Source: a phage. From it: a stretch of 64,000 nt of DNA. The DNA lies in the sequence record NC_104726.1. One strand, 5' to 3'. The notes beneath the pieces were generated by a model. It was not told the origin of the DNA, did not search any database, and saw nothing but the letters and a program-made list of their open reading frames with translations. Made by a program: the position numbers and the translations under genes. Each line of letters opens with the position of its first letter. Positions within the stretch are counted from its first letter, which is position 1. Below are positions 30,163-48,213 of this stretch, piece after piece.

Positions 30163-30182
30163 CCACACATCGTTTGGAGAAT

Positions 30183-32640: not shown

Positions 32641-33242
32641 GTTACGAATAAAACAATTGCATTGTTAATGATTTCTTATCTTTCTCTTAGTCATCTAATG
32701 ATTACAGTCAGTATAGTTATGTACAGTAAACATTAGACGACTAAAGATTTCTCTGTTTATTATAACTTACCATTACAATTTCGGACTGTTTACCAAGAAT
32801 GTTGACACATAAGCTGATTTATGTTATGCAGTTTACACGAATAATTATTTTATGCAGGTATTGACTATTCCGTTATTCTATGGTTGGAATAAATACTTAG
32901 CAGACTATAGAATGGTGAGCGTACGTAAATTCTGAGATCTGGCGGCTATAGTTATACTCGATTTTTCACGTAGAACACGCTTTTGTGGTTGTGTAAGTGT
33001 ATGACTTATAAAGATTTTTAGTTGTTGACAAGACACTGAAGATATGCATCAGGTTAAATTTTGTGCAATAGCTGCATTACGTGCACTTTTGGGAGAGAAA
33101 ACGGGTAAAAATGGGCCTGCTACCACACAATGAAAGATTATGCAATAGTTATTTTCCATGTATATTTGTACAGTATGTGGAATTGATGGCTAGTCAATTA
33201 TTCCACTTGCCAGGTAGGGCCGTTTATGGTAGGAGAAGAGCA

Positions 33243-33270
33243 GACAAAAAGAAAGGGGCCTTTAAGCCCC
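33243..33270 (-). terminator. rho-independent terminator for the leftward gene array
   Basis: On the minus strand GGGGC...GCCCC hairpin followed by TTTCTTTTTGT, just downstream of the stop at 33291. Confidence 0.5.
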
Positions 33271-33290
33271 TTGATAATTCAGTTAAGAAA

Positions 33291-33710
33291 TTATAATGAT
33301 TCGTATATTTCAAAAATCCGATTTGCCAGGTCGTTACGGTAGCGGAATTTTTCCTCACGTTTGATCATCAGATCTTTAAAGCCATATTCTTTAAGCACTT
33401 CATTAACTTTATGGCGGCATACCTTCATATTATCTTGAGCGTCACCAATAAACTTGTTGCTGTGGTGCATTGCTTTAATTTCTTCTTCCAGGACCAGGGC
33501 AACCACCCGGACCGGATCAAGCTGGTAGGCGGTAACATCGATGCGGCATTGTAGACGGCTTTTAACGTCTGCCACCGGATATACTGCAACCTCTTCCCCG
33601 TCAACATTGACAATAACTAGTTTACCATCGATTTCGAATCCTTTCGCCGCCGGACCGTGACAAAAAGCGTTATCAAAGCTATATGCCGGATTATTAGATT
33701 TAATGTTCAT
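33291..33710 (-). CDS. hypothetical protein
   Basis: Track ORF; last gene of the minus-strand array. Confidence 0.4.
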   Translation of the reverse strand: MNIKSNNPAYSFDNAFCHGPAAKGFEIDGKLVIVNVDGEEVAVYPVADVKSRLQCRIDVTAYQLDPVRVVALVLEEEIKAMHHSNKFIGDAQDNMKVCRHKVNEVLKEYGFKDLMIKREEKFRYRNDLANRIFEIYESL

Positions 33711-33854
33711 GGTGTTTTTACCTCTTAGTTAATTTTCTTACAACTTCCCTTCAAAAAGAATATAGCAAAACTGCCGATCCTTGTCAACCAAGGATAGCAT
33801 AATTTTTATGTGATCAAGGGGCTTTATTGCCCCCTGATCGTGCAACTTGTTGTA

Positions 33855-34118
33855 TTATTTGTTGCTCATCCAGTTTTCCCAGGCTGCCTGATAATCTGCC
33901 TCACTGCGGCGGATCTCTTCTTGCTCTTCAAGTCGGATCTCTTCTTCCAGGTACCCCAGTATATCGGCTTTTTTGGTCTGGCGTAACATCCAATCATCTT
34001 TTTTACGGGTAAAGATCTTATATGCTTTCTCGCAAACCTCTTTTTTGCTACCTTTTTGGACTTCAAGAACTTTGTAGGCCATGTACTGAACTAGTTTGAG
34101 CTGATCAAGACGTTTCAT
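33855..34118 (-). CDS. hypothetical charged protein
   Basis: Track ORF, co-oriented. Confidence 0.4.
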   Translation of the reverse strand: MKRLDQLKLVQYMAYKVLEVQKGSKKEVCEKAYKIFTRKKDDWMLRQTKKADILGYLEEEIRLEEQEEIRRSEADYQAAWENWMSNK

Positions 34119-34178
34119 GATGTTTACCTCTTTATGCGGTTCTGATTAGTGGGCCTTTTGGCCCGTGTCATTATCTTA

Positions 34179-34451
34179 TTACTTATGGCGGCAGAATTCA
34201 AGCGTTTTTAATTGATAATCTTCCTCAGCCTGGAGTACGACCGCCTCGATCATTTCGTTGGCATTGTTAAAGCCATAACCTTTAGCGAAATCATCCGCGC
34301 CACCTTCGTGATCATGTTCTGCGTTCATCGCTTCCACAAAATGGAATTCAAGATTATTGAGGTAAGGGCTTGATGTTCCGTCCTCTTTTTCGATGAGATC
34401 CCAAATAGCATTAAAACGTGATTCGACTTCTTGATTAATCCAGCTTGACAT
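34179..34451 (-). CDS. hypothetical acidic protein
   Basis: Track ORF, co-oriented. Confidence 0.4.
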   Translation of the reverse strand: MSSWINQEVESRFNAIWDLIEKEDGTSSPYLNNLEFHFVEAMNAEHDHEGGADDFAKGYGFNNANEMIEAVVLQAEEDYQLKTLEFCRHK

Positions 34452-34661
34452 AATGTTTTCCTCCCTTCTGGTTGTTGTGTGGGCACTTTTGCCCCTTCAA
34501 GATAATGTTACCCCACCCCCTGGCAGATGTCAACGGTTTTTATAGTTCTTATATGATAGGCAGGCCCGGTGATTGTCTCCCCCCGTCGCCAGGTGCCTGC
34601 CGTGTAATAAGTATAACAAAAAACAGGACCATTGCAAGCCCTGTTTTGTAGTTTATAAATA

Positions 34662-34853
34662 TTATATTTTTTCGCCTATGTAGTCCGGTCGGTTTTTCTC
34701 TGTCATGCGCTTAAGCAATTCTTGCATGTTGCTTATGGCTTGTAGTGTATCCTCTTCAAGGGATGAATCAAGATAATCAGGATCATTCTTCACCTTGCAA
34801 TGATTATGATAACGCAGTACCGCCAGTACTTTTTTAACTTCTTCCGCTGTCAT
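34662..34853 (-). CDS. hypothetical small protein
   Basis: Track ORF, co-oriented. Confidence 0.35.
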   Translation of the reverse strand: MTAEEVKKVLAVLRYHNHCKVKNDPDYLDSSLEEDTLQAISNMQELLKRMTEKNRPDYIGEKI

Positions 34854-34998
34854 TATCGCGCCTAAAACAATGAGTTAATATATAACACCAGATCGCTGAC
34901 TACCAGGACAACATTAATCAGCACATACCTAACCATAAAGGGAAAGATCGCCAACATTGCCGCCACGATCCCCATGGTAATAATTATCTTTCTCATGG

Positions 34999-35283
34999 TT
35001 AACGGTTCACGTAAGTTTTCCCGTTCACGGTTATGGGCAGATCCTCCAGGTCTGGATCTTCCTTAAGGTCGCGAGCAAGCTCACCGCACCGGATACCCTC
35101 GAATCCGTAGTACTCTGTTGTGCCGTCCTTAAAAGTTTTAGCGGCAAGGCATAAGCGATAAGTAACCCCGATTTGATTGACGGCATGAATATCCGTTAGA
35201 TTAACCTCTTTTGCCAGCTCTTTAGCCATTACAGGCGCATTAAGTCCAACAACCAGGGTAACCACTGCGATCATCTTTTTCAT
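34999..35283 (-). CDS. secreted or periplasmic small protein (signal peptide)
   Basis: N-terminal MKKMIAVVTLVVGLNAPVMA signal-peptide-like. Confidence 0.45.
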   Translation of the reverse strand: MKKMIAVVTLVVGLNAPVMAKELAKEVNLTDIHAVNQIGVTYRLCLAAKTFKDGTTEYYGFEGIRCGELARDLKEDPDLEDLPITVNGKTYVNR

Positions 35284-35374
35284 TGTGTCTATCCTCTTTC
35301 TGCTACGTTTAAGGCGGCGGTAACCGCCTGTTTATGCTTTGTTGGTTAATTTTCAGGTATCTGTGTAAATTAAA

Positions 35375-35590
35375 CTATGCTGTACGCTCAACTATAACAA
35401 CGGTTTGGGGGATCTCCCCTTCCACCACTAGTAAGGCCTTTTTCTGCGTGATAGATATCTTTACCCGTTGCAGCGTGGCGGTGAAGTCTTTCATTTCGTC
35501 ACGCGGTGTTTTAGTGCAGTACCAGATCTCAGGCTTGCCGATCTGTAAGTTGCGTAAAAATTCCGTTTTGCCTGTTTTGTTAGTGATCAT
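35375..35590 (-). CDS. hypothetical small protein
   Basis: Track ORF, co-oriented. Confidence 0.35.
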   Translation of the reverse strand: MITNKTGKTEFLRNLQIGKPEIWYCTKTPRDEMKDFTATLQRVKISITQKKALLVVEGEIPQTVVIVERTA

Positions 35591-35781
35591 TTGCCAACCT
35601 CACCCGATACCGTTGGAAGACAAGATCATATTAGACATGGTTGCAATCAGGCCAATACCCAGGGCAATAACCAAGATCACTGCATCGATTAATTTCTGTT
35701 TCATGGTGTTTATTCTCTTCTGTTAGTAACCTTATTCATGGGGCCGCTACCACAGCCCCAGGGTAAGGCAGCTATGTGCTT

Positions 35782-36108
35782 TTAGTGTTTCATTCCAACC
35801 ATCGCGGCACGGATCGCCGTAGTGCTGTACTTGAAGCCGTCCGGGGTCTTATCTTGTCCGGTTAGCTCCAGAAAAAGCATCATATCCCGCGCCGCATCAT
35901 TACGATTAGCATTGGCGTTAATAAAGCCTTGGGCCAACCGGTACAATGACTCATCGTTATTAATCCAAAGGCTTACATTCCAATGAGTTTTGTTTTTGTA
36001 ACCGTTATAACCTTTATTGCTTTTCATGATGTTTACCTCTTCTTTGTTCCAGGTGGCGGACCATTCCACCGCCTTATGTATTATGCTTTGTAAGATGGCT
36101 GTTGTCAA
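35782..36108 (-). CDS. hypothetical protein
   Basis: Track ORF; true start may be internal. Confidence 0.35.
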   Translation of the reverse strand: MTTAILQSIIHKAVEWSATWNKEEVNIMKSNKGYNGYKNKTHWNVSLWINNDESLYRLAQGFINANANRNDAARDMMLFLELTGQDKTPDGFKYSTTAIRAAMVGMKH

Positions 36109-36369
36109 ACTATTTTAACGATAATCATCGTACGCTTTATTAACCTGGCGGATATAACATTCAAAAGCCAGATCAATAGATTTATATTCACGGATATACT
36201 CACCATAGGAAACCACATACATTTCTATAGCTTCCTCATATGCGAGGAGAATAGAATCTAAGCCTACGATCTCAGTCTTTGCAATAATAGCCATGATTTT
36301 TATCCTCTTTGTAGTTGGTGGGGTTCGTTGCCCCCTCTGATTTATATATTACAGTCTTATATGGTCATG

Positions 36370-36603
36370 TCAACTATTTTCAAAAAATTTTTCTGCTGTG
36401 ATATTCTTCCCGGTAGGGTTCGCTACTTTCAAAATTTTATCATGCACTGGACGCCCAAAAGAATAAGCGCCGTACACAGTAAACCAATAATCGCCGTCAG
36501 GTTGTACTATTACTGCCGCATATGGTACGCCTTTTTCGTTTTTGCTGACAAAATAGATCACGTTGCCATTAATAGCCTCGGCGCGTTTAATTTGTTCCAT
36601 CAT
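36370..36603 (-). CDS. hypothetical small protein
   Basis: Track ORF, co-oriented. Confidence 0.4.
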   Translation of the reverse strand: MMEQIKRAEAINGNVIYFVSKNEKGVPYAAVIVQPDGDYWFTVYGAYSFGRPVHDKILKVANPTGKNITAEKFFENS

Positions 36604-36658
36604 GATGATTTGCCTCTCTTTATTTTCATAATTGGGGGCCTTTTCGGCCCCGCCAGGT

Positions 36659-36943
36659 TTATTTATTGATAGCGTGCAGCGGGAAAGCTACGCCAGGTTG
36701 ATAAATAACCTTTACAACCTCATCAGGACAAAAGAAGTTGCAGAACTCACCGCAATAGGCCTCATCCTCTTTCAACTCTTCATCAACATACTCAAAAAAG
36801 TAGTCGATGCTTGGATAATCCTGGCCGTGATTATAGTCAACCATCGTTAATAATAACTCTTGATCATTCCGTAGGATGTGCATACCCGCTTTTAAGTATT
36901 TTGCTTCCATTTCTACTACATCGCCAGCGGTAATAATAGCCAT
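36659..36943 (-). CDS. hypothetical acidic protein
   Basis: Track ORF, co-oriented. Confidence 0.4.
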   Translation of the reverse strand: MAIITAGDVVEMEAKYLKAGMHILRNDQELLLTMVDYNHGQDYPSIDYFFEYVDEELKEDEAYCGEFCNFFCPDEVVKVIYQPGVAFPLHAINK

Positions 36944-37145
36944 GATTTTAACTCCTATCTATCTGGTCAACGATTGGGGGCCTCCCCCTCGACAACTCTT
37001 ATTATCCATATTGTCGGGAATGATGCAAGTACTTCTTTAAAAATTTTTTAAGCGCCCCGTATGCCGTTGTAACGCCAAAATAATAAAGGCCATGCAACCG
37101 CATGGCCTTTATGTGATTATATTGCTGCAGGCCCTGCTAGGGGCC

Positions 37146-37496
37146 TTATTTTGCATTCTTGCCTGTATTGCCGCCACGGTACCAGCGTTTGCGGTGAAAA
37201 TGGTAATAATCACCCTCGGCATTAAACATCAGATGATTTTCAATAACCAGCTTACGAAGGTGGGCCGGATCTTGTTCCATTCTTGCCAGATTCCGGCGGC
37301 TGTTACGTAAGCGTATAAATTCCATATTCAGGCCGTTGATTGCAGCATGGATGTCAAAGTAACCGCCTTTGAGACGTTCACGCATGGCGTTAAGCTCAAC
37401 ACAATATACAGATTTCTCACAAATCAAGGCATTAGCTAGGGCGCGGACCTGGGCAAGGGGGTTAAGCTCATTAAGGTAATATAGTTTGACTTTCAT
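37146..37496 (-). CDS. hypothetical protein
   Basis: Track ORF, co-oriented. Confidence 0.4.
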   Translation of the reverse strand: MKVKLYYLNELNPLAQVRALANALICEKSVYCVELNAMRERLKGGYFDIHAAINGLNMEFIRLRNSRRNLARMEQDPAHLRKLVIENHLMFNAEGDYYHFHRKRWYRGGNTGKNAK

Positions 37497-37513
37497 AAAA
37501 TCGCCTGCTGAAA

Positions 37514-37822
37514 TTAGTTTGAGAAAACATCGTTCACAATAGCGATCACAATGCCGCCCACCTTGTCACGGTCAACAATGCACAAATCACCATGGATCAT
37601 GCGGTAGTCTGGATGATCTTTCACAGAATAGTCAATAAGTGTTTTCTTGTCGTCCAGCTTCGTAACTTCCATTCTCATAACGATATGAGAATCATCAAAG
37701 GCATTATTCCGAAAAGTCATAGCCTGACCGCCAGGGCACCCGGTGATCTCCACTTCCACACCATCTACGATCTGACCATCAAAGAAATAAAGATTATTAG
37801 CCTGGATAAACATGTCTATCAC
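37514..37822 (-). CDS. hypothetical protein
   Basis: Track ORF; AAGGAG-like RBS. Confidence 0.4.
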   Translation of the reverse strand: MIDMFIQANNLYFFDGQIVDGVEVEITGCPGGQAMTFRNNAFDDSHIVMRMEVTKLDDKKTLIDYSVKDHPDYRMIHGDLCIVDRDKVGGIVIAIVNDVFSN

Positions 37823-37858
37823 TCCTTGTTAACTGCGTAGTATTTTAACAGGGTTTAA

Positions 37859-37894
37859 ATTTACTTTATTGATGGCCCTGGAGTCAAGGCCATC
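37859..37894 (-). promoter_or_regulatory. recurrent dyad-symmetric intergenic element, copy 1 (promoter/operator candidate)
   Basis: Minus strand GATGGCC-TTGACTCCAG-GGCCATC with TTGACT in the loop, then AATAAAGTAAAT; about 40 nt upstream of the 37822 start. Confidence 0.35.
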
Positions 37895-37906
37895 TAAAAA
37901 TAAATT

Positions 37907-38107
37907 TTACAGGCCTACAATCTCTTTGATTCGTTTTACTGCTGCCTCAGCGCCTTGGGGGTAGAAATTATGGTAACCGATCACGCGAGTGATACTAATC
38001 GCAGTTTGATGATCTTCATAATAGCCCTTGAAGATTTCTTGACCGTCAATCAGCACGGCAATTTTTTCTTCTTTTTTGAAGTTAATAACGCGGATATTGT
38101 TGCTCAT
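37907..38107 (-). CDS. hypothetical small protein
   Basis: Track ORF, co-oriented. Confidence 0.35.
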   Translation of the reverse strand: MSNNIRVINFKKEEKIAVLIDGQEIFKGYYEDHQTAISITRVIGYHNFYPQGAEAAVKRIKEIVGL

Positions 38108-38587
38108 TTTGTTTCTCCTTTCTGGTTTTTGTGTTGGTGGGGATTAGCTCCCCGTTGATTATTATTATCCATATTTCGGACCGGATTGCAACACCCCGGA
38201 AGAAAAATTTTTTGAAAAAGTTAGGCCCCCAGGGATCGGGGGCCGTTATCAGTTACTTACAGCGATAAAATACATCCCTACGCCTAACAATATTTCAAGG
38301 GCGATGATCTCAAGCCATACCATAACCCGGCGCACCTTATCGGTGCGGGGCTTATCCTTGGTTGTCATCGTCTCCCCCTTTCATCCTGGTAGTAGTGACG
38401 TGGTTTACAATGGCCCCCAGGAGTACCATCACCACGCACATCACAAGAAAAATTATCTCTGTCGTTGTTCGATCCATTGTTATAAAATTCCTTAAGATCA
38501 GGCCTGAAAATAAAGCGTTCGTTATTGAATCCATCACGCCAGGCGGCTGGCTTCAAATCTTCATCAAAGGGATTAATTAACGTGGTA

Positions 38588-38992
38588 TTATTTAAACGGC
38601 TGGCCCACATATTTTCTATTCCTCTCAAATAGGCGATCCGCCTCAGTTAAACAAATCTCATGGGCGTGATCTCTGGTTTTAGCTTCATCGAAAACCTGTT
38701 GTGCAAGGCTGCAGCGTAGGGAGACTGGAAGATCACTATAATAGGCGTTGACAAATGTTTGCGCGTCATACAGGTCGGAAAATACTTTACCCTTTCTATT
38801 ATCGCCTTTGTCAACAATTGCAAGGATAACAAGTACAATAGTTGCAACCACCCCCAGGAAAATAGATATAATAAACCATAAAAAGGCGGATCTACCCATC
38901 TTGCCAGCGATCCAGGCGTTAAACAAGGCAACTAATACGGCCAAAATAATAAATTCCATTCTATGTACCTCTTTTGCAGTTCTGTTTAACAA
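38588..38992 (-). CDS. membrane protein (two predicted TM helices)
   Basis: Hydrophobic N-terminal half; true start may be the internal MEFIILAV. Confidence 0.4.
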   Translation of the reverse strand: MLNRTAKEVHRMEFIILAVLVALFNAWIAGKMGRSAFLWFIISIFLGVVATIVLVILAIVDKGDNRKGKVFSDLYDAQTFVNAYYSDLPVSLRCSLAQQVFDEAKTRDHAHEICLTEADRLFERNRKYVGQPFK

Positions 38993-39023
38993 TAAGGCGG
39001 CAAATATGCCGCCTGTTACCTGA

Positions 39024-39404
39024 TTAAAAATTATCGCCGTAAATCTTTCCGCTTTCTGCCCACACCACCACGCGGGGCATACTATCCCACACGTCTTGTT
39101 TTAGATTGAGCGCGTGCAATTCTTCAGTGGTGCCCATACCAGGCACGGGCTGATTGTATACTGCAAAACGACCACCTGCATAATCATAGGCCAGGGTTAA
39201 ATCACACTGAATCATCTTTTTGATCATGGCGTTGAGCATAGCGTTAGCCGCATACTGGTCACGTTTTAAAGGCAACTCTTTGATTAGTTTGCGATAGTTT
39301 TCAATGTGATCGCACACTGTTTCACGTGGAAGATCTTTCATATCCTCGCGAAAGGTAACCAGGTTAAACATAACGGTGTCAATAGCTTTAGTAGTGTTTT
39401 TCAT
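39024..39404 (-). CDS. hypothetical protein
   Basis: Track ORF, co-oriented. Confidence 0.4.
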   Translation of the reverse strand: MKNTTKAIDTVMFNLVTFREDMKDLPRETVCDHIENYRKLIKELPLKRDQYAANAMLNAMIKKMIQCDLTLAYDYAGGRFAVYNQPVPGMGTTEELHALNLKQDVWDSMPRVVVWAESGKIYGDNF

Positions 39405-39494
39405 AATGTTTTCCTCTTTGTTTTGTGTGGGGCAAACGTCTTGCCCCCCTTGAGTTTTAATATAGCAGGTTTTTAGATTATTGCAACACTTTAT

Positions 39495-40118
39495 TTATGA
39501 AAAACTCATCTCTCCATATTCATCCACATCAAACCGCCAATCATTGGCCTCAATAAGGCCGATCAGGTTTTCGGTAGTGAACTGTTCTAGATAGGCCTCC
39601 TCCAGGTCTACGTAAACCTTGCGGGATAGCTCCCGTACCGTCTCGGTGATCAGCTCTTCCAGGTCTTCCACTTTGTTTTCTTGTTTGGCGGTCAGATCTA
39701 GCCAGGTGGTATCAATGTATCCGCTTACAGTGTTTTCATGGCTGTAATGGCTGTACTTGTCGCGTTCAACACTGGCTGATAACTCGCCATCGTGCATTGT
39801 GCCGAACAAGTGACGAATTGATCGGAACTTGGTCAGGGCCTTTACTTTACGCAAAAATTTTTCTAAATCCACGTTTTCAGCACTGATTGACGCGCCGTCA
39901 CCCTGGCACCAAAAGCCGGACCAATGTACTTTGGTATCTTCAAGGCCGTACTCTGGAAAGATATATTCTTTGTAGTGTTCAATTACACTTTCTGCAAAAA
40001 AGTCATCCCCGCTGTGTTCTTCTCTTTCGCGTACCATTTCAATGGCTTTTTCTTTTTGTTCGTCGGTCAGCACGTCGAAAGATAAATTGTAACCTGTGGT
40101 AATGTTAACGGTGGTCAT
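39495..40118 (-). CDS. hypothetical acidic protein
   Basis: Track ORF (207 aa); HWSGFWCQGDGASI motif, family not recognised. Confidence 0.45.
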   Translation of the reverse strand: MTTVNITTGYNLSFDVLTDEQKEKAIEMVREREEHSGDDFFAESVIEHYKEYIFPEYGLEDTKVHWSGFWCQGDGASISAENVDLEKFLRKVKALTKFRSIRHLFGTMHDGELSASVERDKYSHYSHENTVSGYIDTTWLDLTAKQENKVEDLEELITETVRELSRKVYVDLEEAYLEQFTTENLIGLIEANDWRFDVDEYGEMSFS

Positions 40119-40192
40119 GATATTTTCTCCTGTTTTCTTTGTTAGTGGCGGTAAGTTTTCCCGCCTGTGTGTTTAATTATACTTATTGAGAT

Positions 40193-40453
40193 TTACTTGT
40201 CAACACTATTTTTTAAATTATTGTGGCGCAAAATGTTTAAAATCTCCTCAACGTCATCAACACGGCGGCAATTTTTAAACGCTACCAATTGCCCCATGAT
40301 TTTAATCACTGGGCGGCCTTGCCAGTGCCCCTGGAGAAAGCGCGCCTTGACTTTATCGGTGGAACTATCACGCCACCAAATGGCCTTGTTGTTGCAGTAG
40401 TAAAAATTATTCAGGACAACATCAACTTTATCAAAATTTTTTAATTTACGCAT
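40193..40453 (-). CDS. hypothetical small protein
   Basis: Track ORF, co-oriented. Confidence 0.35.
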   Translation of the reverse strand: MRKLKNFDKVDVVLNNFYYCNNKAIWWRDSSTDKVKARFLQGHWQGRPVIKIMGQLVAFKNCRRVDDVEEILNILRHNNLKNSVDK

Positions 40454-40694
40454 GGCGTTTACGCCTTTCTCTCTTTGATGTGGTTAGTATAGCTAACCTG
40501 TTTAAGATGTCAAGCTTTAAATAAAATCACTGTCAATGATATTTTTAACGCCATAAAACGGCCCTAAGCGATGTTTTCAGGTTAAAGGGGGGCGATTGCA
40601 TAGGTGGGGCCTTTTTGGCGCTTACAGGGCCAACCAGGGGCGCTATTCGTAGGATAGAAATAAAAAGCCCCGCACAATGGCGGGGCGTTGGTTG

Positions 40695-40916
40695 TTATTT
40701 GTCTTTATGGCGGTATCGTTCTGCCTGTCGTTCACGTTCCAAAAGTAGGCCAGGCAATTTACGATCATAATGATTTCGCCAGATCTTTCCAAATCTTTTT
40801 GGCTTATTCAGTTTATTGTTACGCTGGCGTCGTTCCGGCAGCTCTTCGGAATCATGAGATCGCTTTACAATCTTCTCAAAATTAATCTTCATATATTCCC
40901 CCCTTGCTAACTTCAA
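40695..40916 (-). CDS. hypothetical basic small protein
   Basis: Track ORF; arginine/lysine-rich. Confidence 0.3.
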   Translation of the reverse strand: MKLARGEYMKINFEKIVKRSHDSEELPERRQRNNKLNKPKRFGKIWRNHYDRKLPGLLLERERQAERYRHKDK

Positions 40917-41253
40917 TATTGGCCTGAATCGCCCGGATACGCCGTTTTATAACCTCCTGATCCTTGCAATCATATCCCCAAAAGTCTACGATTTTTGCGC
41001 CTCCAGCCTTTAGGCGGTATAGTGTTTCTTGCATCTTGTAAGCCGGGATCGGTCGCGGTGTTACCTGGTCTCCTTTCTCATCCTTGTACTTGATAATATA
41101 GTCTTCATTGTCGTTGAATACCCAAAATGGGTATTCTGTGAGCGCGTTGCTCTCTTTCTCGTTTTTAGATTGGATCTTGTTTACAATTAAAGCCGTAGCA
41201 ATAGCGCCAATAATAAAACTAGCCCCGCTGATCATGTTACTTTCTCCTTTCAT
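40882..41253 (-). CDS. membrane-anchored protein
   Basis: N-terminal hydrophobic segment ISGASFIIGAIATALIV. Confidence 0.4.
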   Translation of the reverse strand: MKGESNMISGASFIIGAIATALIVNKIQSKNEKESNALTEYPFWVFNDNEDYIIKYKDEKGDQVTPRPIPAYKMQETLYRLKAGGAKIVDFWGYDCKDQEVIKRRIRAIQANIEVSKGGIYED

Positions 41254-41311
41254 GGTGTTAATAAACTATCTTTATAGATGGCCCTGCCACCAGGGCCACC
41301 GAAAAAACAGC

Positions 41312-41557
41312 TTATTTGACAATACCGACAAAACAGATCCCACCTTCCCCAACATAGGCGATGTCGGTAACCTTATAATTGGTTAAGATCTGCTTATTTA
41401 GTTCATTAATAAAATCGGTCATCGCGTTGGTGTAGTTGTCTTCCATGTCTAGGGAATAATCCCAGGTGTAAACCTTTTTACGTCCGAAGCCTTTTACCAT
41501 GATACGGGCGCTTTTGGTGTTGGTAGGGGCGTAATATTTGGTAATTAGTGCGGCCAT
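41312..41557 (-). CDS. hypothetical small protein
   Basis: Track ORF, co-oriented. Confidence 0.35.
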   Translation of the reverse strand: MAALITKYYAPTNTKSARIMVKGFGRKKVYTWDYSLDMEDNYTNAMTDFINELNKQILTNYKVTDIAYVGEGGICFVGIVK

Positions 41558-41598
41558 GGTTTTAACTCCTATGCATTAGTTCAGTGTTAACAGTATAA

Positions 41599-41635
41599 AG
41601 TTTACTTTATTGATGGCCCTGGTGTCAAGGCCATC
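41599..41635 (-). promoter_or_regulatory. recurrent dyad-symmetric intergenic element, copy 2
   Basis: GATGGCCCTGGTGTCAAGGCCATC at 41612-41635 with the same flanks as copies 1 and 3. Confidence 0.35.
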
Positions 41636-41646
41636 TAAAAATAATC

Positions 41647-41988
41647 TTACTCGTTTTCTTCCAGCTCCGCAAGCTCTTCTTTTGCTTCTTCCAACTCTGT
41701 CTGTAATTCCTGGTATTCTTCATCGTCCTCAATATCCAGGCTGTCGATGTAGTCGCTAAATCCGCAGCGGTAAGCGATAGGATCTAGCTCCTTGAGGATA
41801 CGCGACGGAAGAAAAGAAATGTTTCCGATCATAATTTCGCCGTAGATCTCGTCTAACCATTCATCATAGTTTTCGTCGTACTTGTCCTCGTCGATTTCAA
41901 AGTTATCGATCTTGTTCTCAAGGTCTGCGATCTGTTTTTTCAGCGCGGCGATCTGCATAGCTTTATCTGCGGCGGTCATAGTAGTCAT
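41647..41988 (-). CDS. hypothetical acidic coiled-coil protein
   Basis: Track ORF; very acidic C-terminus. Confidence 0.4.
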   Translation of the reverse strand: MTTMTAADKAMQIAALKKQIADLENKIDNFEIDEDKYDENYDEWLDEIYGEIMIGNISFLPSRILKELDPIAYRCGFSDYIDSLDIEDDEEYQELQTELEEAKEELAELEENE

Positions 41989-42218
41989 GGTGTTTTCTCC
42001 TTTTGTGTGTTCTGGGAAGTTTTCCCGTTTATGTGGTTAGTATACTGATCTAAGTTAGCTTGTCAATTAAAAGTTTAAGAAAAATTTTGCGATACCGTTG
42101 GCGCTACCCATCAACATTTGCGCCAGGATGTAACCAATGATGCAAACGATAATAGTTACCTTTGTGTGCTGGCGTGTAGTACTCATCTTTAAGCCCCCTT
42201 TCCGCTCAACTGTGGTTA

Positions 42219-42254
42219 GTTTACTTTATTGATGGCCCTGGAGTCAAGGCCATC
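42219..42254 (-). promoter_or_regulatory. recurrent dyad-symmetric intergenic element, copy 3
   Basis: GATGGCCCTGGAGTCAAGGCCATC at 42231-42254, identical to copy 1. Confidence 0.35.
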
Positions 42255-42265
42255 TAAAAATAAAC

Positions 42266-42661
42266 TCAGTAAGTTTTCAGTACTTTCCCGTCCAATCTGT
42301 CAAGCTGGATCTCGATAGCTGCAGAAAACCTATTATAAACCACATCGCCCATGGAGTCCAGCCAATCTATGACGTTATACACCTGCTCTTTATTCTTGCA
42401 AGTCCGGATCCGTTTCATTACGTAAGACGGATCAATATTAGTGCTCTCGTTGTTGTGGTCATGCGCCTGGCCTGCTGCATTAGCTATAGATTTTACAACC
42501 ACCTGAAAGGGCTTTAAGGTGCCTTTTGCGTTCATCTCACGCGCTTTTGCGGCGCGGTTGTTATATGTTACACAACGGCGGCAAATGTTGACCAAATGCA
42601 TATCAATAATTTTTTCATCGTTTGCCAGTTCGTTCATGATGCGGCGTACGTTCTTATTCAT
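42266..42661 (-). CDS. hypothetical protein
   Basis: Track ORF, co-oriented. Confidence 0.4.
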   Translation of the reverse strand: MNKNVRRIMNELANDEKIIDMHLVNICRRCVTYNNRAAKAREMNAKGTLKPFQVVVKSIANAAGQAHDHNNESTNIDPSYVMKRIRTCKNKEQVYNVIDWLDSMGDVVYNRFSAAIEIQLDRLDGKVLKTY

Positions 42662-42745
42662 GATCTTTTTCCTTTGTGTTGGCGGGAAACATTCCCGCCT
42701 TTTGTGTCTAGTTTACTTTAATTTTGCAGCGTGTCAATAATTTTT

Positions 42746-43144
42746 TTATTCGTGGGCACATGTTACAATGTGCTTTTTATAGCCTAGGTGGTTAGCAAGT
42801 GCCGACAAAAACTCTTCTTCATAGATCCAGCCGTTGGCAGTGATCCCCATAGCATTTAATGCGCTCTCAAGTGCTGCGTTAGCTTTATCATAACCGTGAC
42901 CGCTCGCCTTGCCGCCAGTATAACCGTACTTATTGTTCTTGTTGTCGTGCATCCAAAAAACGCAGTAGTTAGTGTTACCGCTGGCGGCGGCATAGTACCG
43001 GATCTCCGCTACTTCGTGCAAATTATTATCATCGTCCAGGCCAACCAGATTATAAGCCTTGTAAAATCCACGATCACGGCGGCAGTTCTTGACATCAGAA
43101 AAAGAGAAGTCGGCATTATCAAAATTAAAGGTAGTGGTTTTCAT
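42746..43144 (-). CDS. hypothetical protein
   Basis: Track ORF, co-oriented. Confidence 0.4.
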   Translation of the reverse strand: MKTTTFNFDNADFSFSDVKNCRRDRGFYKAYNLVGLDDDNNLHEVAEIRYYAAASGNTNYCVFWMHDNKNNKYGYTGGKASGHGYDKANAALESALNAMGITANGWIYEEEFLSALANHLGYKKHIVTCAHE

Positions 43145-43207
43145 GATTTTATCCTCTTAGTGTCTTTTGCGATTTCAGTATATTTTGTGTCAGACCATAT
43201 GTCAACA

Positions 43208-43405
43208 TTATTTTTTATTAAACCAGTGGTTGATCTGACCTTTTGTCAGGGCGCAACGGTTAAGCTGTTGCAGGGTATAGCTATGACCGCGACGAAATTT
43301 ATAAAGGCCTTGCCCGTTGTTGATGGTTACATCCACCCGGCAAATCACTTGATTGGTGACCACCTGGCGAGTGTTGCGACGTACTTTAATTCCGTAGGCG
43401 TTCAT
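43208..43405 (-). CDS. hypothetical small basic protein
   Basis: Track ORF, co-oriented. Confidence 0.3.
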   Translation of the reverse strand: MNAYGIKVRRNTRQVVTNQVICRVDVTINNGQGLYKFRRGHSYTLQQLNRCALTKGQINHWFNKK

Positions 43406-43483
43406 GATTTTTTATCCTCTCTGTTAATTGGTGTGGTGTTGTTCACCTTGCGAGGATAAGAATAACAAGAACTGTCCGAGCTG

Positions 43484-43666
43484 TCAACCATTAGTTAAAA
43501 TTATTTTTGGGTAGAATTCTCCAGCCGCCGCCCCTGCCAGGTTAACCATCATTTTTTCGTACTCTTCTTTATGTTCCAACGCTCCCGCCATAGCCTTTTC
43601 AACCAGGGCGATAGCCTCAGCGTCATTAATAGCTACATTTTCCAGGGGGATCATATTACCTTCCAT
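43484..43666 (-). CDS. hypothetical small protein
   Basis: GAGGAGG RBS 8 nt upstream on the minus strand. Confidence 0.35.
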   Translation of the reverse strand: MEGNMIPLENVAINDAEAIALVEKAMAGALEHKEEYEKMMVNLAGAAAGEFYPKIILTNG

Positions 43667-43696
43667 TTTTGTACCTCCTCTTCAATTGTTACCTAT

Positions 43697-43725
43697 CCTA
43701 TAGCATAGGCCCACCAGGTTTGCAA
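43697..43725 (-). promoter_or_regulatory. sigma70-like promoter candidate for the leftward array (TTGCAA-17-TATAGG)
   Basis: Minus-strand -35 at 43720-43725, -10 at 43697-43702, about 30 nt upstream of the 43666 start. Confidence 0.3.
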
Positions 43726-43879
43726 GCCTTCATTATCTCCTACCTGGTCAGTTAGGCCCTGCCAGGCTGGCCCCGCCAGGTTGCAGCGGTCAGCGCATCA
43801 GGTTAGAATTTTTTTTTTGAAAAGTGTTGACAGCGGCCCCGCCAGGTGGCAAAATATACCTATCGAAAGGACGGCAGGC

Positions 43880-44100
43880 ACCGGTGACGGGGGAGACAAC
43901 CACCGGGGATGGGCGCTGCATGAAATGAGAACGATTATCATTATCGTCTAAAAATTTATGCAAAAACTTCTTGCTTTCTTTGTCCTGTGTGTTACTATAA
44001 TAACAAGCCGGGGCAGTAGGGGCCGGGAGACAATCACCGGGCCTGCCCGTTATTCTGCAAACGAGAATGATTATCATTCAAAATTCTAAATGAGAACTCC
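43880..44100. repeat. two GC-rich direct repeats with an operator-like palindrome
   Basis: GGGAGACAACCACCGGGG...AAATGAGAACGATTATCATT (43891-43942) vs GGGAGACAATCACCGGG...AAACGAGAATGATTATCATT (44024-44079); palindrome GAATGAT-T-ATCATTC at 44064-44078. Confidence 0.45.
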
Positions 44101-44189
44101 TCGCATTTAATAAATTTAATTAGCACGCTAATTACCCTCCGTAACAATTTCCTATAAAATAGTATCCACTAAAATATTCCCATATAGAA

Positions 44190-44640
44190 ATTTTAAAAAT
44201 CCATTTCTGAAAACGAAAAATCGATTTCGTCCCCAAAAATTTCAGGCCAAGAGCCGGAGCGATTTCCAGAAAATCCGATTCAGAAAACGAAAAACAGATC
44301 AAGTACTGAGAAATTTATCGAGAAAAATTTTCAGAAAATCCAAGCCCTGAAATGAAAAGTAGATCGAGTACCTGGAAAGCTGCACCGCAACTTCAAGATA
44401 GTGGTTAGATTGTTACCATAGAAGGTCAAGGGTAAGTGGAGGAAGTTCTAGTAGAGGGAGGTTAGCATGTGTGGGAAATCTATAATGGTGGCCTGGAATA
44501 TGGTGCAAACGATAGGATGAGTTATTCAGCTTGTCGCGCCTACTCTGAAAAATCCATTTTAGTTTTCGATCCATTTTCTGATTTTCTAAGAATTTTAAAA
44601 TATCTGGCCCGGTGAAATATCAAAAGGAGGAAATCCATTT
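44190..44640. repeat. degenerate tandem repeats of about 65-72 bp, each with a GATC
   Basis: Three adjacent copies of AGAAAATCC...CTGAAAACGAAAAA..GATC.AGTAC (44196, 44268, 44333) plus AAATCCATTTTAG remnants at 44540 and 44611. Confidence 0.45.
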
Positions 44641-44683
44641 TAGAAATCCCCCTTATACTTGATATGCCAGGAATTTTCAAGTA

Positions 44684-45013
44684 TCAGCTGTCTTTGTTTT
44701 TAGGTTTGTACATGCGCAGAGGTATGGTCTTTGTAACATTCCATTTCCTCAACCCTTCCCAGCTCCAGTTGTGGGCGTGATACCCGGTTATGCATGCACT
44801 GCTGGCGTGATCATAAGCATAAGAGAACGCTATGTGCACCAGGTGGGGCCAGTCCTTCCACGGCTGTGGACCGTAAGCCTTTCTCCAACACCGACACAAA
44901 CTAATTGTCTCAAGAATAGGGAGAATAACAATTCCATATACCACCACCAGAATGGTCAGTGCAATGATTGTCAGGAACACATACCCTGCAGTTGAAATGA
45001 TGATCTCTGTCAT
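44684..45013 (-). CDS. membrane protein
   Basis: N-terminal hydrophobic helices. Confidence 0.4.
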   Translation of the reverse strand: MTEIIISTAGYVFLTIIALTILVVVYGIVILPILETISLCRCWRKAYGPQPWKDWPHLVHIAFSYAYDHASSACITGYHAHNWSWEGLRKWNVTKTIPLRMYKPKNKDS

Positions 45014-45213
45014 TTGTCGTCCCCTTTCTTACGAATATAGATGTGAGAGCCTGCCTGTATATAAATTTCTCGACCATCCTCTGCAAAGATATGAAATACA
45101 CGATCACCTTCGTACTCGATACGAGATATCTTCATAATGGTCTTTCCACCTGGGATACGGATCTCGTCCCCCACAGCGATGTTCCATGCAGATTTAAGCT
45201 TAAACATCTGCAC
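45010..45213 (-). CDS. hypothetical small protein
   Basis: Track ORF, ATGA-type overlap. Confidence 0.35.
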   Translation of the reverse strand: MQMFKLKSAWNIAVGDEIRIPGGKTIMKISRIEYEGDRVFHIFAEDGREIYIQAGSHIYIRKKGDDK

Positions 45214-45445
45214 CCTCCTTTGGGAACTTGAACTCTGGCATAGCCATATACGCTACAACAGGGTTGTGATCAAAGTAGAACTGACCGTTAATTATCCCGG
45301 TTTTGTCCACATAGTTACCAGATCCTGCAAGAACAACCTCGCAAGCTCCGAAATCCACATTGCCATCCTCATCAGCCATGGCTACGATATACTTTCCAAG
45401 AGGCATGTTTTTAACGCCGTCTACAAATGTCCACTCTGTGTTCAT
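45200..45445 (-). CDS. hypothetical small protein
   Basis: Track ORF, co-oriented. Confidence 0.35.
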   Translation of the reverse strand: MNTEWTFVDGVKNMPLGKYIVAMADEDGNVDFGACEVVLAGSGNYVDKTGIINGQFYFDHNPVVAYMAMPEFKFPKEGADV

Positions 45446-45454
45446 ACTTTACCC

Positions 45455-45787
45455 TTAAGGTAGCCAGTAAACAATCTCGCCTTTCAGCTTCATATCGTTT
45501 CCAACATAAATTTCCCAGCCATCCATCTTAGCAACTGTAGGCCCAAAGTCATCCGCACCCCTTACCTCTTTCCAGGCTCCGTAGTCAGGTTGCCAGATAT
45601 AGAATCCACCTTCTTTGTCCCATGCTCCGTACACTACGTTTAACAGGTTTCCCATTGCAACAATGGTGGGCCGTGGGAATAATACATCTACAGATGCGCC
45701 ACAATTTCGGGTATCTTTTAAGTTGCAATCCCAAAAGATGTCTGCCAGTGTGGCGGCGATAGCTTTACGTCTTTCCAAAGTTACCAT
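45455..45787 (-). CDS. hypothetical protein
   Basis: Track ORF, co-oriented. Confidence 0.4.
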   Translation of the reverse strand: MVTLERRKAIAATLADIFWDCNLKDTRNCGASVDVLFPRPTIVAMGNLLNVVYGAWDKEGGFYIWQPDYGAWKEVRGADDFGPTVAKMDGWEIYVGNDMKLKGEIVYWLP

Positions 45788-45797
45788 GGCACGATAC

Positions 45798-45989
45798 TCA
45801 CTTGTTGTTAAGAAGTTCTAAAACTTTCTGTTTTACTTTATCAAGATCTGTTGATTCAAAAACTGTGCGATATCCCCAACTTTGCCCGTAGGAGTGACTG
45901 CAATCCCCGTAGCACCATTGCTCAATTTGATAGTATTCAAGGAAGGGGTGCTGTCTAACTATGATACCATCCCGGTTAAAAATTACCAT
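45798..45989 (-). CDS. hypothetical small protein
   Basis: Track ORF, co-oriented. Confidence 0.3.
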   Translation of the reverse strand: MVIFNRDGIIVRQHPFLEYYQIEQWCYGDCSHSYGQSWGYRTVFESTDLDKVKQKVLELLNNK

Positions 45990-46052
45990 AATACATCACT
46001 CTCTGTTAGTTTATGCATATATTATACACTGCAGTTTTCAGATGTCAATCTT

Positions 46053-46304
46053 TTACAGGTTACTCCAGTATAATCGGCATTTACATTTTGGGCAATGAGG
46101 TTCTTTTATGTAATAACCATCAGTCTTTGGAACACTTTTTGGTGCAGTTTTAAGATTGTACCGAGTAAAACACCGGAAGCAGGTTACCTCTCCAACCTGT
46201 TGATCGTTTATCCACTCGCCAGAGTAAAGCTCTCTCTTGTTTCTCATAATTCTCTCCCAAATCCTCTGCAATCTTATACCAAAATCTCCAGCCAGAAAGC
46301 ACAC
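46053..46304 (-). CDS. small zinc-ribbon protein
   Basis: CFRC...CPKCKC cysteine pairs. Confidence 0.35.
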   Translation of the reverse strand: MCFLAGDFGIRLQRIWERIMRNKRELYSGEWINDQQVGEVTCFRCFTRYNLKTAPKSVPKTDGYYIKEPHCPKCKCRLYWSNL

Positions 46305-46498
46305 GGGAACATTTTGATGATTGAATCTTTACCTGGTTCAGTAGTTCTTTTTCCGTATGGTAGGTAGAAATACACTCCTGCAGATTCGAACACAGCCCCT
46401 TCGGTCGTATCTATCACAGCCAGAATTAAGATTTTAGTCTCCACAGCGCTCTCCTCTCTTAGTCGTTGTGGAAACTATATCACCTCAGAAGATGGTCG

Positions 46499-46957
46499 TC
46501 AACACTTTTTATACTCTACTACAACCACATCAATATCTGCAGTTGCAAGATTAATTACATCTTCTACGTGTTCCCACTTTAGACCGCCAATACCGCATCC
46601 GATTTTAGGAATGTAGAACGGCAATGACACACCTTTGAATACCTCGTTGACTCGCTCAAAACCTTTCATTATTGAGAAGTATTCAGCATTGGGCCCTGGG
46701 TAGAACTGGGTATACAGGTTGATTCCATATACGACCCTGTTCTTGGCAAAATGCTCCCAACAAGAAAACATACCCAGCTTGTCCAGATTACCATAGGCAG
46801 TCTCTTTGTCGGCTGCCAGTGCTTGAGGGAACTCACGGGCAATATCTTTCGCTATGCCTGCACCCATTGTATGAAAGCAGTTACAACCGTGGATCAGGTG
46901 ACCAGCACCGCTCTTAAAAAGGGAGATTAAATCTCCACCTACAGTATCAATAATCAC
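46499..46957 (-). CDS. macrodomain protein (ADP-ribose binding/processing)
   Basis: HGCNCFHTMGAGIAKDIAREFP and IGCGIGGLKWEHV resemble the two macrodomain glycine-rich motifs. Confidence 0.55.
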   Translation of the reverse strand: MIIDTVGGDLISLFKSGAGHLIHGCNCFHTMGAGIAKDIAREFPQALAADKETAYGNLDKLGMFSCWEHFAKNRVVYGINLYTQFYPGPNAEYFSIMKGFERVNEVFKGVSLPFYIPKIGCGIGGLKWEHVEDVINLATADIDVVVVEYKKC

Positions 46958-47372: not shown

Positions 47373-47440
47373 CTTAGTTCTCCGGGTTCAACAGGTGGTG
47401 GTGCTACAGGAAGATCATAAAACATGGCTATCACAGTCTC

Positions 47441-47638: not shown

Positions 47639-47734
47639 GGGCAGTGGTCTCCTGTTAGTTATACATCCCAGTTTTCTTCGTTCATCGCGTCCTCCCGTTT
47701 TATGAAGTTATAATTGCACACCTTTCAACCTGTG

Positions 47735-48151: not shown

Positions 48152-48170
48152 TTTTCAGATCTCCTTATAC

Positions 48171-48198: not shown

Positions 48199-48213
48199 TA
48201 TGTTAACTAGGTG

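Follow-up and report, generated by a model that had tools for sequence, protein, structure and literature searches.

Repeated two-tier hairpins between early genes of an rV5-like phage as candidate RNase III-type processing signals and recombination linkers

The early region of this Vequintavirus (rV5-like) E. coli phage contains four intergenic copies of a repeated unit of 45-57 nt, packed within 4.4 kb, that folds into a strand-specific, covarying hairpin, resembles the RNase III processing signals of T7, and marks the precise ends of gene cassettes deleted in related phages. We propose, with confidence a little better than even, that these repeats are intercistronic processing and stabilising hairpins of the RNase III type that double as recombination linkers. 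Therapy and biocontrol make wide use of rV5-like phages, whose early region is annotated almost wholly as hypothetical proteins, without post-transcriptional signals. Hairpins for processing or recombination are unreported for Vequintavirus; RNase III and linker mechanisms are known elsewhere, and the gain is incremental in that respect.

In the mechanism that we propose, each copy would fold immediately behind the upstream stop codon in minus-strand polycistronic early transcripts, and host RNase III would recognise the helix as it does the early processing signals of T7. A single cut on the 3' side of the internal loop would separate the upstream from the downstream cistron, and the upper hairpin would stay behind as the protective 3' end of the upstream mRNA. 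The same repeats would serve as short DNA homologies through which recombination deletes the cassettes lying between copies, and the reverse reaction could insert them. RNase III as the factor, the position of its cut and the effect on mRNA stability are predictions here; if they are right, the hairpins define the mature early mRNAs and, like T7 R0.5 and R1.1, would offer compact and portable insulators of mRNA.

A repeated hairpin on the gene strand

The sequence-only reading of this DNA had described a 45-bp element at 37860, 41600 and 42220, always between minus-strand genes, with a related hairpin at 41280-41300, and had proposed a genome-wide search for the motif. The 45-mer is present without mismatches at 37860-37904 and 42220-42264 and with 2 mismatches at 41601-41645 (the second start thus moving from 41600 to 41601), where 100 shuffles gave an expected count of none. 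The pattern GATGGCC-N10-GGCCATC also matches 41277-41300 with 1 mismatch, and grouping by a repeat finder placed this hairpin in the family as a diverged fourth copy, with 69% identity across 49 nt (41264-41312). All four members, and not only the original three, lie between minus-strand ORFs. A covariance model of the element (R1) found these four copies and no further one in the window, by which we mean the whole 64-kb stretch of DNA (64,000 nucleotides) that was analysed. The minus-strand scores for copies 1 to 4 were 80, 78.4, 76.9 and 74.2 bits; on the plus strand they were 39-43 bits overall and 41.6 bits for copy 1.

The whole two-tier hairpins, all on the minus strand, span 37857..37907 (copy 1, upper stem and loop 37871-37894), 41599..41647 (copy 2, upper stem and loop 41612-41635, loop ACAC), 42218..42266 (copy 3, upper stem and loop 42231-42254, loop ACUC) and 41260..41316 (the diverged copy 4, upper stem and loop 41277-41300). 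On that strand the four share one fold: an A/U-rich lower stem leads, across an internal loop of 2 nt (5' side) and 3 nt ending in AU (3' side), to a G/C-rich upper stem of 10 bp that is closed by a tetraloop. In copies 1-3 the upper stem is GAUGGCCUUG/CAGGGCCAUC, 10 bp including one U.G and capped by a 4-nt loop, and the internal loop is UA/AAU. Copy 4 has the upper stem GGUGGCCCUG/CAGGGCCAUC with the loop GUGG, an internal loop UC/UAU and a lower stem of 14 bp with three G.U pairs, and does not contain TTGAC. Across the four copies the lower stem measures 7-14 bp and the helix, which is interrupted, totals ~22-27 bp. The dyad seen in the first description was therefore real, but its dimensions were not: in place of 7 bp around a 10-nt loop, the minus strand forms 10 bp around a 4-nt loop above a second, A/U-rich lower stem. 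The placement of TTGAC in the hairpin was borne out, TTGACT or TTGACA occupying the hairpin top in copies 1-3 (minus strand).

Predicted folding energies on the minus strand were -23.6 kcal/mol (z -4.8) for copy 1, -22.3 kcal/mol (z -6.3) for copy 2, -25.1 kcal/mol (z -6.6) for copy 3 and -32.1 kcal/mol (z -8.6) for copy 4. Plus-strand folds of the four copies ranged from -15 to -18 kcal/mol with z from -2.0 to -2.9 (copy 1, -18.1 kcal/mol, z -2.0; copy 4, -16.1 kcal/mol).

The lower stem takes in the upstream gene's stop codon in all four copies, and in copy 1 it begins at the last stop-codon base of ORF 37907..38107. The copies sit inside runs of small same-strand genes, with consensus promoters before them and canonical terminators after them, and minus-strand polycistronic transcription presumably passes through them. 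On both strands a T-rich tract lies upstream of the element and an A-rich tract downstream. An intrinsic terminator was considered and rejected, given that the hairpin is followed by AAUAAAGUAAA, without a U tract, and that the element is missing from both the terminator scan and the EdH4 annotation.

Variation among relatives

We compared 38 distinct variants of the element from 14 Vequintavirus genomes, 30 of them being variants of copies 1-3. Paired cells made up 98.0% across the 38 variants, while slid registers paired at most 56%, and four lower-stem pairs had changed on both sides. The covariation score was 0.173, as against 0.100 in shuffles, and none of 500 shuffles reached the observed value. 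Read on the gene strand, the variants contain 96 G.U pairs and 15 mismatches; read on the other strand, they contain 8 G.U pairs and 103 mismatches. Because the departures from symmetry are almost all G.U-compatible, and on the gene strand only, we read the conserved feature as RNA structure, and the data indicate that the element works at the RNA level and not as a double-stranded DNA operator.

This bears on the earlier suggestion that the dyad might be bound by a dimeric regulator. A site acting at the DNA level without any RNA role, whether the operator of such a regulator or a recombinase or mobile-cassette target or linker, would fit the perfect 7-bp dyad, the precise loss of cassettes between copies, and the fact that loop variants are often common to the copies of one genome, which suggests gene conversion. 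The strand asymmetry in G.U pairs and the compensatory changes in the lower stem are unexpected for duplex DNA, however, and no recombinase is encoded nearby, the flanking genes being without known function. Moreover, short homology and phage recombination would be enough for the deletions, as has been argued for the promoter-early stem-loop (PeSL) cassettes of T4-like phages (PMC2839356). The duplex-DNA operator was rejected on anatomy, and we regard a purely DNA-level site of any kind as highly improbable.

Variation was unevenly distributed over the unpaired positions. The 3' triplet of the internal loop ends in AU in 38/38 variants; its first base varies. In copies 1-3, position 1 of the terminal loop is A in 30/30 variants, position 2 is C in 29/30, and position 3 takes all four bases. 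Within these 30 variants TTGAC departs from invariance only twice, by a G-to-T and a C-to-T change; any of the four bases occurs as the sixth of the hexamer, followed by C or U.

Comparison with the T7 processing signals

The early RNase III signals of T7 (R0.3, R0.5, R1, R1.1, R1.3, R4.7, R6.5 and R18.5) are likewise recurrent, mutually similar intergenic hairpins, and they have the same type of placement, in an early polycistronic mRNA that is transcribed by the RNA polymerase of the host. Both the T7 sites and the copies described here possess a 9-10-bp upper stem with a tetraloop, an internal loop of the 2x3 type and a lower stem. The internal loop of T7 R1 (UA/AAU) is that of copies 1-3, the internal loop of R0.3 and R1.1 (UC/UAU) is that of copy 4, and in copies 1-3 a U.G, then a U-A, then the closing pair lie below the tetraloop, as in R1.1. 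On the other hand, the stems have no sequence homology with those of T7 (GAUGGCC... here, AAGGUC... in T7), the lower stem is almost pure A/U, and position 1 of the distal box is C-G in copies 1-3 rather than A-U. The present phage is also an unrelated myovirus, for which RNase III cleavage is predicted from sequence and fold.

We built a covariance model from six T7 sites only (R2) and ran it unfiltered on both strands of the window. The top four matches were the four copies, full length and in register, at 22.1 (copy 3), 19.9 (copy 2), 15.4 and 13.4 (copy 4) bits, a result that, the copies being paralogues, is nearer one independent observation than four, and for which the E-values are rough owing to a short calibration. 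R2 also recovered T7 sites that it had not been built from, R18.5 at 40.4 bits and R6.5 at 23.1 bits. Its background reached at most 12.9 bits over 88 kb of T7 and distant relatives and at most 13.4 bits in all, the level at which copy 4 scores.

T7-type sites have an interrupted helix of some two turns (~20-22 bp) within a single RNA strand, to which the 10-bp upper and 7-14-bp lower stems of all four copies correspond, and 2-nt x 3-nt loops provide the asymmetric internal loop at the predicted cut site. They also lie between cistrons and are picked out by a profile of known sites, copy 4 at background level. An asymmetric internal loop at an RNase III cut site limits cleavage to one strand. 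At the level of individual pairs, the U.G of T7 R1.1 is a stringently required distal-box pair, every substitution at distal-box position 1 of a minimal T7 substrate cut cleavage more than ~5-fold, proximal-box position 2 admits neither G-C nor C-G, and 11 bp lie between the cut and the tetraloop (PMC1540722). The distal-box U.G has its equivalent in 30/30 variants of copies 1-3; in these copies distal-box position 1 is C-G and the counterpart of proximal-box position 2 is A-U. In copy 4 the U.G is replaced by C-G, and the counterpart of proximal-box position 2 is G.U.

By register with T7 R1 and with R0.3/R1.1, and by the 11-bp rule, RNase III would be expected to cut copy 1 just 3' of the AAU on the 3' side of the internal loop (37868..37870, minus strand), between 37868 and 37867. 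The equivalent minus-strand triplets in register with T7 are 41609-41611 in copy 2, 42228-42230 in copy 3 and 41274-41276 in copy 4 (UAU). RNase III coordinates are not annotated in the two T7 records; the T7 cleavage coordinates that we used, which we take to be those of Dunn and Studier (1983), coincide, in three folds, with the final U of the 3-nt loop.

A stable, strand-specific hairpin directly after a stop codon could also protect or insulate a cistron without RNase III, by blocking 3' exonucleases once the RNA has been cut elsewhere, in the manner of REP elements, or through transcription/translation-coupling attenuation. The A/U-rich flanks would suit RNase E, and the background-level score of copy 4 with the T7 model also speaks for this reading. 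Nonetheless, a hairpin of this kind leaves the two-tier plan, the invariant A-U of the 3-nt loop, the distal-box U.G and the choice of the copies by the T7 model unaccounted for, and the absence of a U tract goes against intrinsic termination; we consider this explanation very unlikely.

RNase III has no strict requirement for loop sequence. The near-invariant AC at loop positions 1-2 is a feature that RNase III does not explain, and it fits a -35 hexamer better.

The promoter question

The sequence-only reading had also raised the possibility of a promoter whose -35 is occluded by the hairpin. The -35-like TTGAC is indeed real and conserved in copies 1-3, and a weak sigma-70 promoter may exist there; against a promoter as the defining function of the element stand, among other points, the lack of a -35 in copy 4 and matches of only 9-10/12. 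The promoter-like sequences, all on the minus strand, are TTGACT-N18-TAAATT at 37858..37887 (copy 1, 9/12), TTGACA-N18-TAAACT at 41599-41628 (copy 2, 10/12) and TTGACT-N18-TAAACT at 42218-42247 (copy 3, 9/12); copy 4 has CTGGTG in place of TTGAC, with the hairpin architecture kept.

It was not unreasonable to consider that the element might, also or instead, be a sigma-70 promoter in which an upstream A/T-rich tract, TTGAC(T/A) as the -35, an 18-nt spacer and TAAAYT as the -10 drive the downstream small gene, the hairpin being incidental or formed in read-through RNA only. The occurrence of this arrangement in three near-identical copies is consistent with the proposal, as are the near-invariance of TTGAC with a free sixth position, expected of a -35 hexamer, and the invariance of T and A at the key -10 positions. 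The T4-like PeSL cassettes, moreover, join a promoter to a stem-loop (PMC2839356). Several observations nevertheless make such a promoter rather unlikely. The -10 deviates from the consensus at two positions, and 18 nt separate it from the -35; matches of 9/12 are near background and barely enriched (56 found, 35 expected from shuffles). By a consensus scan the region is rich in 11-12/12 promoters, and the bona fide early promoters of this phage group, which are 11-12/12, are followed by a 5' hairpin. The element is absent from the curated rV5 and EdH4 annotations and from the table of 33 rV5 promoters. The invariant -10 bases double as lower-stem bases and so do not discriminate, copy 4 is structured without a -35, and the G.U strand asymmetry and lower-stem covariation go unexplained. 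Because no terminator lies between the element and the upstream promoters, a promoter at the element is also unneeded.

The two functions could be combined in a portable junction of dual use, with a weak internal DNA promoter whose -35 lies at the top of the dyad and an RNase III signal that forms in read-through RNA only and uncouples the cistrons on its two sides. Every gene bounded by two copies would then be a self-contained cassette, insulated in its transcription, that recombination can excise or insert. We judge this combination decidedly unlikely; if true, it would be a Vequintavirus counterpart of the PeSLs built on a different principle.

Cassettes between copies

The cassette between copies 2 and 3 (41646..42219, minus strand) contains ORF 42067..42186 (39 aa), a consensus promoter with a 5' hairpin (42002-42066) and ORF 41647..41988, and is precisely absent in ECP32, ECP26, phiWec189, ime, A147 and L129. 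The ECP32 junction is a clean copy-2/copy-3 hybrid, and the same junction is found in the IMG/VR locus L129 and in 5 of 113 phage records. The cassette between copies 4 and 2 (41313..41600, minus strand; ORF 41312..41557, 81 aa) is precisely lost in 241Ecol014PP. The hybrid junction left by loss of this 335-bp cassette takes its left flank from copy 4 and its hairpin and right flank from copy 2, with the crossover in CTTTAT. The copies explain the recurrent presence and absence of genes among phages that are otherwise 94-97% identical.

The PeSL cassettes of T4-like phages (Arbiol 2010, PMC2839356; Comeau 2014, PMC4122927) likewise lie between small early ORFan genes as short conserved motifs that combine a G/C hairpin with an A/T-rich tract, and in both systems genes are deleted or swapped when the copies on either side of them recombine. 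The PeSL, however, is a strong consensus promoter beside a terminating stem-loop. In the present phage, which belongs to a different family, the hairpin itself holds a -35-like hexamer, the match to a promoter is weak and a U tract is lacking. Judged from sequence only, recombination indels of ORFans are shared with the PeSLs and the terminator is not. The idea that regulatory repeats are points of gene shuffling is in this way extended beyond T4-like phages.

Distribution and related repeats

Rfam gave no match at the element (30000-50000, E up to 1), R1 found no copy in phi92-like or Av-05-like loci, and a metagenome scan matched only rV5-like contigs. Since E. coli genomes hold nothing that matches it, the element does not derive from the host. 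A search with the neighbouring proteins returned only 5 viral loci, and the flanking proteins offered no functional lead. The rV5, EdH4 and isim annotations leave the element unmarked, the repeat_region of isim being elsewhere, and the literature search turned up neither a description of such a motif nor transcript mapping for Vequintavirus. Loose IMG/VR pattern scans yielded for the most part Pseudomonas prophage hairpins, which were set aside as unrelated; their upper stem is common by construction of the pattern, and R2 gave no match to these hairpins.

The same early region carries a second type of recurrent intergenic regulatory repeat, at 40138-40203 and 42002-42066, in which a consensus promoter (TTGACA-N16/17-TATAAT) precedes a GGCGGG...CCCGCC hairpin that opens the transcript. 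These cassettes are also present in distant relatives, with 5-7 copies in phi92-like loci, whereas the two-tier hairpin is confined to Vequintavirus.

Copies and distribution of the element

The phage from which the window derives is an rV5-like myovirus of the genus Vequintavirus, and the 8-kb stretch around the element, a row of small minus-strand ORFs without assigned function, shares 94-97% identity with over 100 records of Escherichia phages, among them rV5/V5, FFH2 and FV3. A 65-aa ORF at 40695-40892 (-) matches the bacteriophage T7 gene 1.1 (gp1.1-like) protein family (Pfam PF08200, E 2e-11). The sequence-only reading had reported three near-identical copies of a 45-nt repeat, and this was confirmed: the exact 45-mer lies at 37860-37904 (copy 1) and 42220-42264 (copy 3), and recurs with 2 mismatches at 41601-41645 (copy 2), with no copies expected by chance. 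The related hairpin noted near 41280-41300 proved to belong to the same family, the hairpin at 41277-41300 being a fourth, diverged member (copy 4; 69% identity across 49 nt).

The element is confined to Vequintavirus. It was found in 120 phage records, with about three BLAST-detectable copies in each, and its metagenome matches were to rV5-like contigs only; it was absent from the phi92-like and Av-05-like relatives and from the E. coli genomes searched. It has no match in Rfam, and is unmarked both in the curated rV5 record with its supplementary table (33 promoters, 20 terminators) and in the EdH4 record, which has annotated terminators. About 20 records (MG0656xx) that carry the label of Campylobacter jejuni phages show 93-96% identity to the present region of an E. 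coli Vequintavirus. Several of them begin or finish at the motif, as would be expected if the assemblies were mislabelled or contaminant and had broken at the repeat.

A two-tier hairpin on the gene strand

The dyad had been described as a perfect 7 bp; it is present, but on the minus strand it extends to 10 bp capped by a tetraloop, GAUGGCCUUG-ACUC-CAGGGCCAUC, with U.G as its eighth pair, and it stands on a second, lower stem formed between the T-rich 5' flank and the A-rich 3' flank. All four copies share this fold: 7-14 bp of lower stem, then an internal loop with 2 nt on the 5' side and 3 nt on the 3' side, then 10 bp of upper stem closed by a 4-nt loop. Fold energies were -22 to -32 kcal/mol on the minus strand (z -4.8 to -8.6) and -15 to -18 kcal/mol on the plus strand (z -2.0 to -2.9). 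With a covariance model of the element, the four copies reached 74-80 bits when read on the minus strand but 39-43 bits on the plus strand, and the 64-kb window gave no further match.

We gathered 38 distinct variants from 14 Vequintavirus genomes or contigs, including IMG/VR loci; these are paralogues and close orthologues and so represent few independent events. Three variants with 1-nt indels were excluded, and one inserted A was deleted from one row. Pairing on the two-tier structure held in 98.0% of cells and was at most 56% in slid registers. The covariation score was 0.173 vs 0.100 in shuffles, a value reached by 0 of 500 shuffles, and two-sided changes occurred at four lower-stem pairs (G-C/A-U/G-U, U-A/C-G, U-A/G-U/A-U and A-U/U-A). 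Read on the gene strand, the alignment holds 96 G.U cells and 15 mismatches, whereas the complementary strand gives 8 and 103, respectively; upper-stem changes are few, and nearly all are C-to-U facing G on the gene strand. The direction of this strand asymmetry is consistent despite the few independent events. The pairing and G.U pattern is the product expected of selection on an RNA hairpin, and would not be yielded by a duplex-DNA operator or by a promoter alone. The interpretation offered in the sequence-only reading holds in part: its TTGAC is real, but a promoter or an operator is not the best fit.

Among copies 1-3 the upper stem changes recurrently at one place only, the inner C of CCAGG (a Dcm site), where C-to-U makes the closing pair G.U. 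This change is located at column 37 of A3, the alignment of variants (equivalent to 37880 and 42240 in the window), and occurs in copy 1 of EdH4 and copy 3 of SYGMH1; the mirror change, G-to-A (U.G to U-A), was never seen among the variants.

Position within predicted transcription units

An intrinsic terminator was rejected on anatomical grounds, since the U-rich tract precedes the hairpin, the sequence 3' of it being AAUAAAGUAAA, and since a terminator scan of the region reported none of the copies. The scan did report canonical terminators nearby at 40686, 39014, 38244 and 37112, and these, together with consensus promoters at 43205, 42066, 40513 and 40203 (11-12 of 12), bracket the copies, which places each copy within a multi-gene unit. 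In all four the stop codon of the upstream ORF falls inside the 5' arm of the lower stem, and the next start codon follows 24-45 nt downstream. This layout is that of the five early processing signals of T7, which lie in a polycistronic precursor of about 7 kb (PMC3867540) and two of which, R0.5 and R1.1, are in use as mRNA insulators (PMC3643576).

Comparison with T7 RNase III signals

When folded, the early T7 sites have the same plan as the element: a lower stem, a small internal loop with unequal sides, and a 9-10-bp upper stem ending in a tetraloop. In R1 the lower stem is followed by UA, the upper hairpin, AAU and the lower stem again, an internal loop identical to that of copies 1-3, while the UC/UAU internal loop of R0.3 and R1.1 is identical to that of copy 4. 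In the element the 3-nt side of the loop follows the pattern N-A-U, and neither the A nor the U varies across the 38 variants. According to Pertzev and Nicholson, about 11 bp are required from cut to tetraloop, the second position of the distal box must be U.G, G-C or C-G at proximal-box position 2 prevents binding, and internal loops confine cleavage to one strand, leaving a protective 3' hairpin (PMC1540722). Aligned by the internal loop with R1.1 (A14-U25, U15.G24, U16-A23 and C17-G22), copies 1-3 have the U.G, the U-A and the closing pair at matching places and in the same orientation, and A-U at the equivalent of proximal-box position 2; unlike R1.1, they have C-G at distal-box position 1. 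Copy 4 has no such U.G, and its equivalent of proximal-box position 2 is G.U.

A covariance model built on six T7 sites only was run unfiltered on both strands of the window, and its best four matches were the four copies, on the minus strand, each aligned over its whole length with the register as expected (22.1, 19.9, 15.4 and 13.4 bits). The model found held-out T7 sites at 40.4 bits (R18.5) and 23.1 bits (R6.5), and nothing else in the 88 kb of sequence from T7 and distant relatives exceeded 12.9 bits. Against these controls copies 3 and 2 stand clearly above background and copy 1 modestly above it, whereas copy 4 does not rise above it. It did not match Pseudomonas prophage hairpins with an rV5-type upper stem, and thus the score is not due to that stem alone.

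The T7 cleavage coordinates 890, 3138 and 5887 (Dunn and Studier 1983) each coincide with the final U of the 3-nt loop of the fold concerned. By register with these, the predicted minus-strand cuts are between 37868/37867 (copy 1), 41609/41608 (copy 2), 42228/42227 (copy 3) and 41274/41273 (copy 4). The explanation that we favour, with moderate confidence, is a hairpin between cistrons that would serve for RNase III-type processing and stabilisation and would also act as a recombination linker; it falls within known kinds of system.

The conserved loop and nearby promoters

The RNase III model does not account for the conservation of TTGAC in copies 1-3: A occupies loop position 1 in 30/30 variants and C position 2 in 29/30, with all four bases occurring at position 3. 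Since RNase III makes no strict demand on the loop (PMC1540722), this conservation favours a -35 hexamer or some other recognition of the loop. Several points speak against a promoter as the principal function: the hexamer is absent from copy 4, the -10 would be TAAAYT at 18 nt, a score of 9-10/12 is close to scan noise, and the genuine early promoters of this phage group are consensus sites with a 5' hairpin after them. A weak internal promoter within the element, which could coexist with processing, is a less likely rival.

Downstream of copy 1, at a distance of about 8 nt (37842-37850, -), lies an extended -10-like sequence, TGTTAAAAT, which phage phita32 retains as TGATAAAAT in an otherwise different flank; judged from these sequences, a real promoter may lie just after the copy-1 hairpin. 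A second intergenic cassette, at 40138-40203 and 42002-42066 (-) and also at 62085-62122, consists of a consensus sigma-70 promoter (TTGACA-N16/17-TATAAT or TATACT), a GGCGGGAAA...CCCGCC hairpin at the transcript start, and a ribosome-binding site. It corresponds to rV5 promoters P186 and P192, and is common to phi92-like relatives at 5-7 copies per 16 kb (L145 7905-15651; L146 7176-14899).

Cassette loss between copies

Phage ECP32 lacks the 619 bp that separate copy 2 from copy 3, comprising two ORFs and a promoter, and the junction is a clean hybrid of the copy 2 downstream flank, a single motif and the copy 3 upstream flank. The same junction is present in one IMG/VR contig, and in 5/113 phage records (ECP32, ECP26, phiWec189, ime and A147). 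In phage 241Ecol014PP the missing gene is the 81-aa ORF that lies between copy 4 and copy 2, the crossover being in CTTTAT at the hairpin edge. Loop variants are often common to the copies of one genome, and the sequences suggest gene conversion among copies. Such loss parallels the shuffling mediated by PeSLs, the promoter-early stem-loop cassettes of T4-like phages (PMC2839356, PMC4122927), although the element, unlike a PeSL, has neither an evident strong promoter nor a terminator-type stem-loop.

Other repeats

A very abundant two-tier hairpin, GAUUUCAC-UGG-CUGGCCUUG-GCGA-CAGGGCCAG-ACG-GGAAAUC, occurs in Pseudomonas prophages, in IMG/VR and genome loci (for example L094 3403-3450; L035 4288, 4568; L064 6602, 6923; L104 6050, 6405; Pseudomonas genomes L156-L235). 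It is strand-specific (-26 vs -17 kcal/mol) and is found immediately 5' of the ribosome-binding sites of small genes, at times as two copies about 300 nt apart; it has no Rfam entry and gave no match to the T7 RNase III model. Members with other stems (UUC...GAG) retain U.G then U-A below the closing pair.

Three tandem A/T-rich repeats of 65-79 nt lie at 44188-44378, in a stretch without long ORFs, and recur in the same relative place in distant relatives (L145 6347-6567, L146 5902-6122, L147 5966-6170); they may correspond to what the rV5 map draws as a 'non-coding' box, and could be origin iterons. Finally, the coding motif GGCNAAAGCNNTNCATGGNGATAAATATGATTAYTC is repeated about 4-6 times at 13016-16498, probably in paralogous genes with a common H-G-D-K-Y-D-Y-S-like motif.
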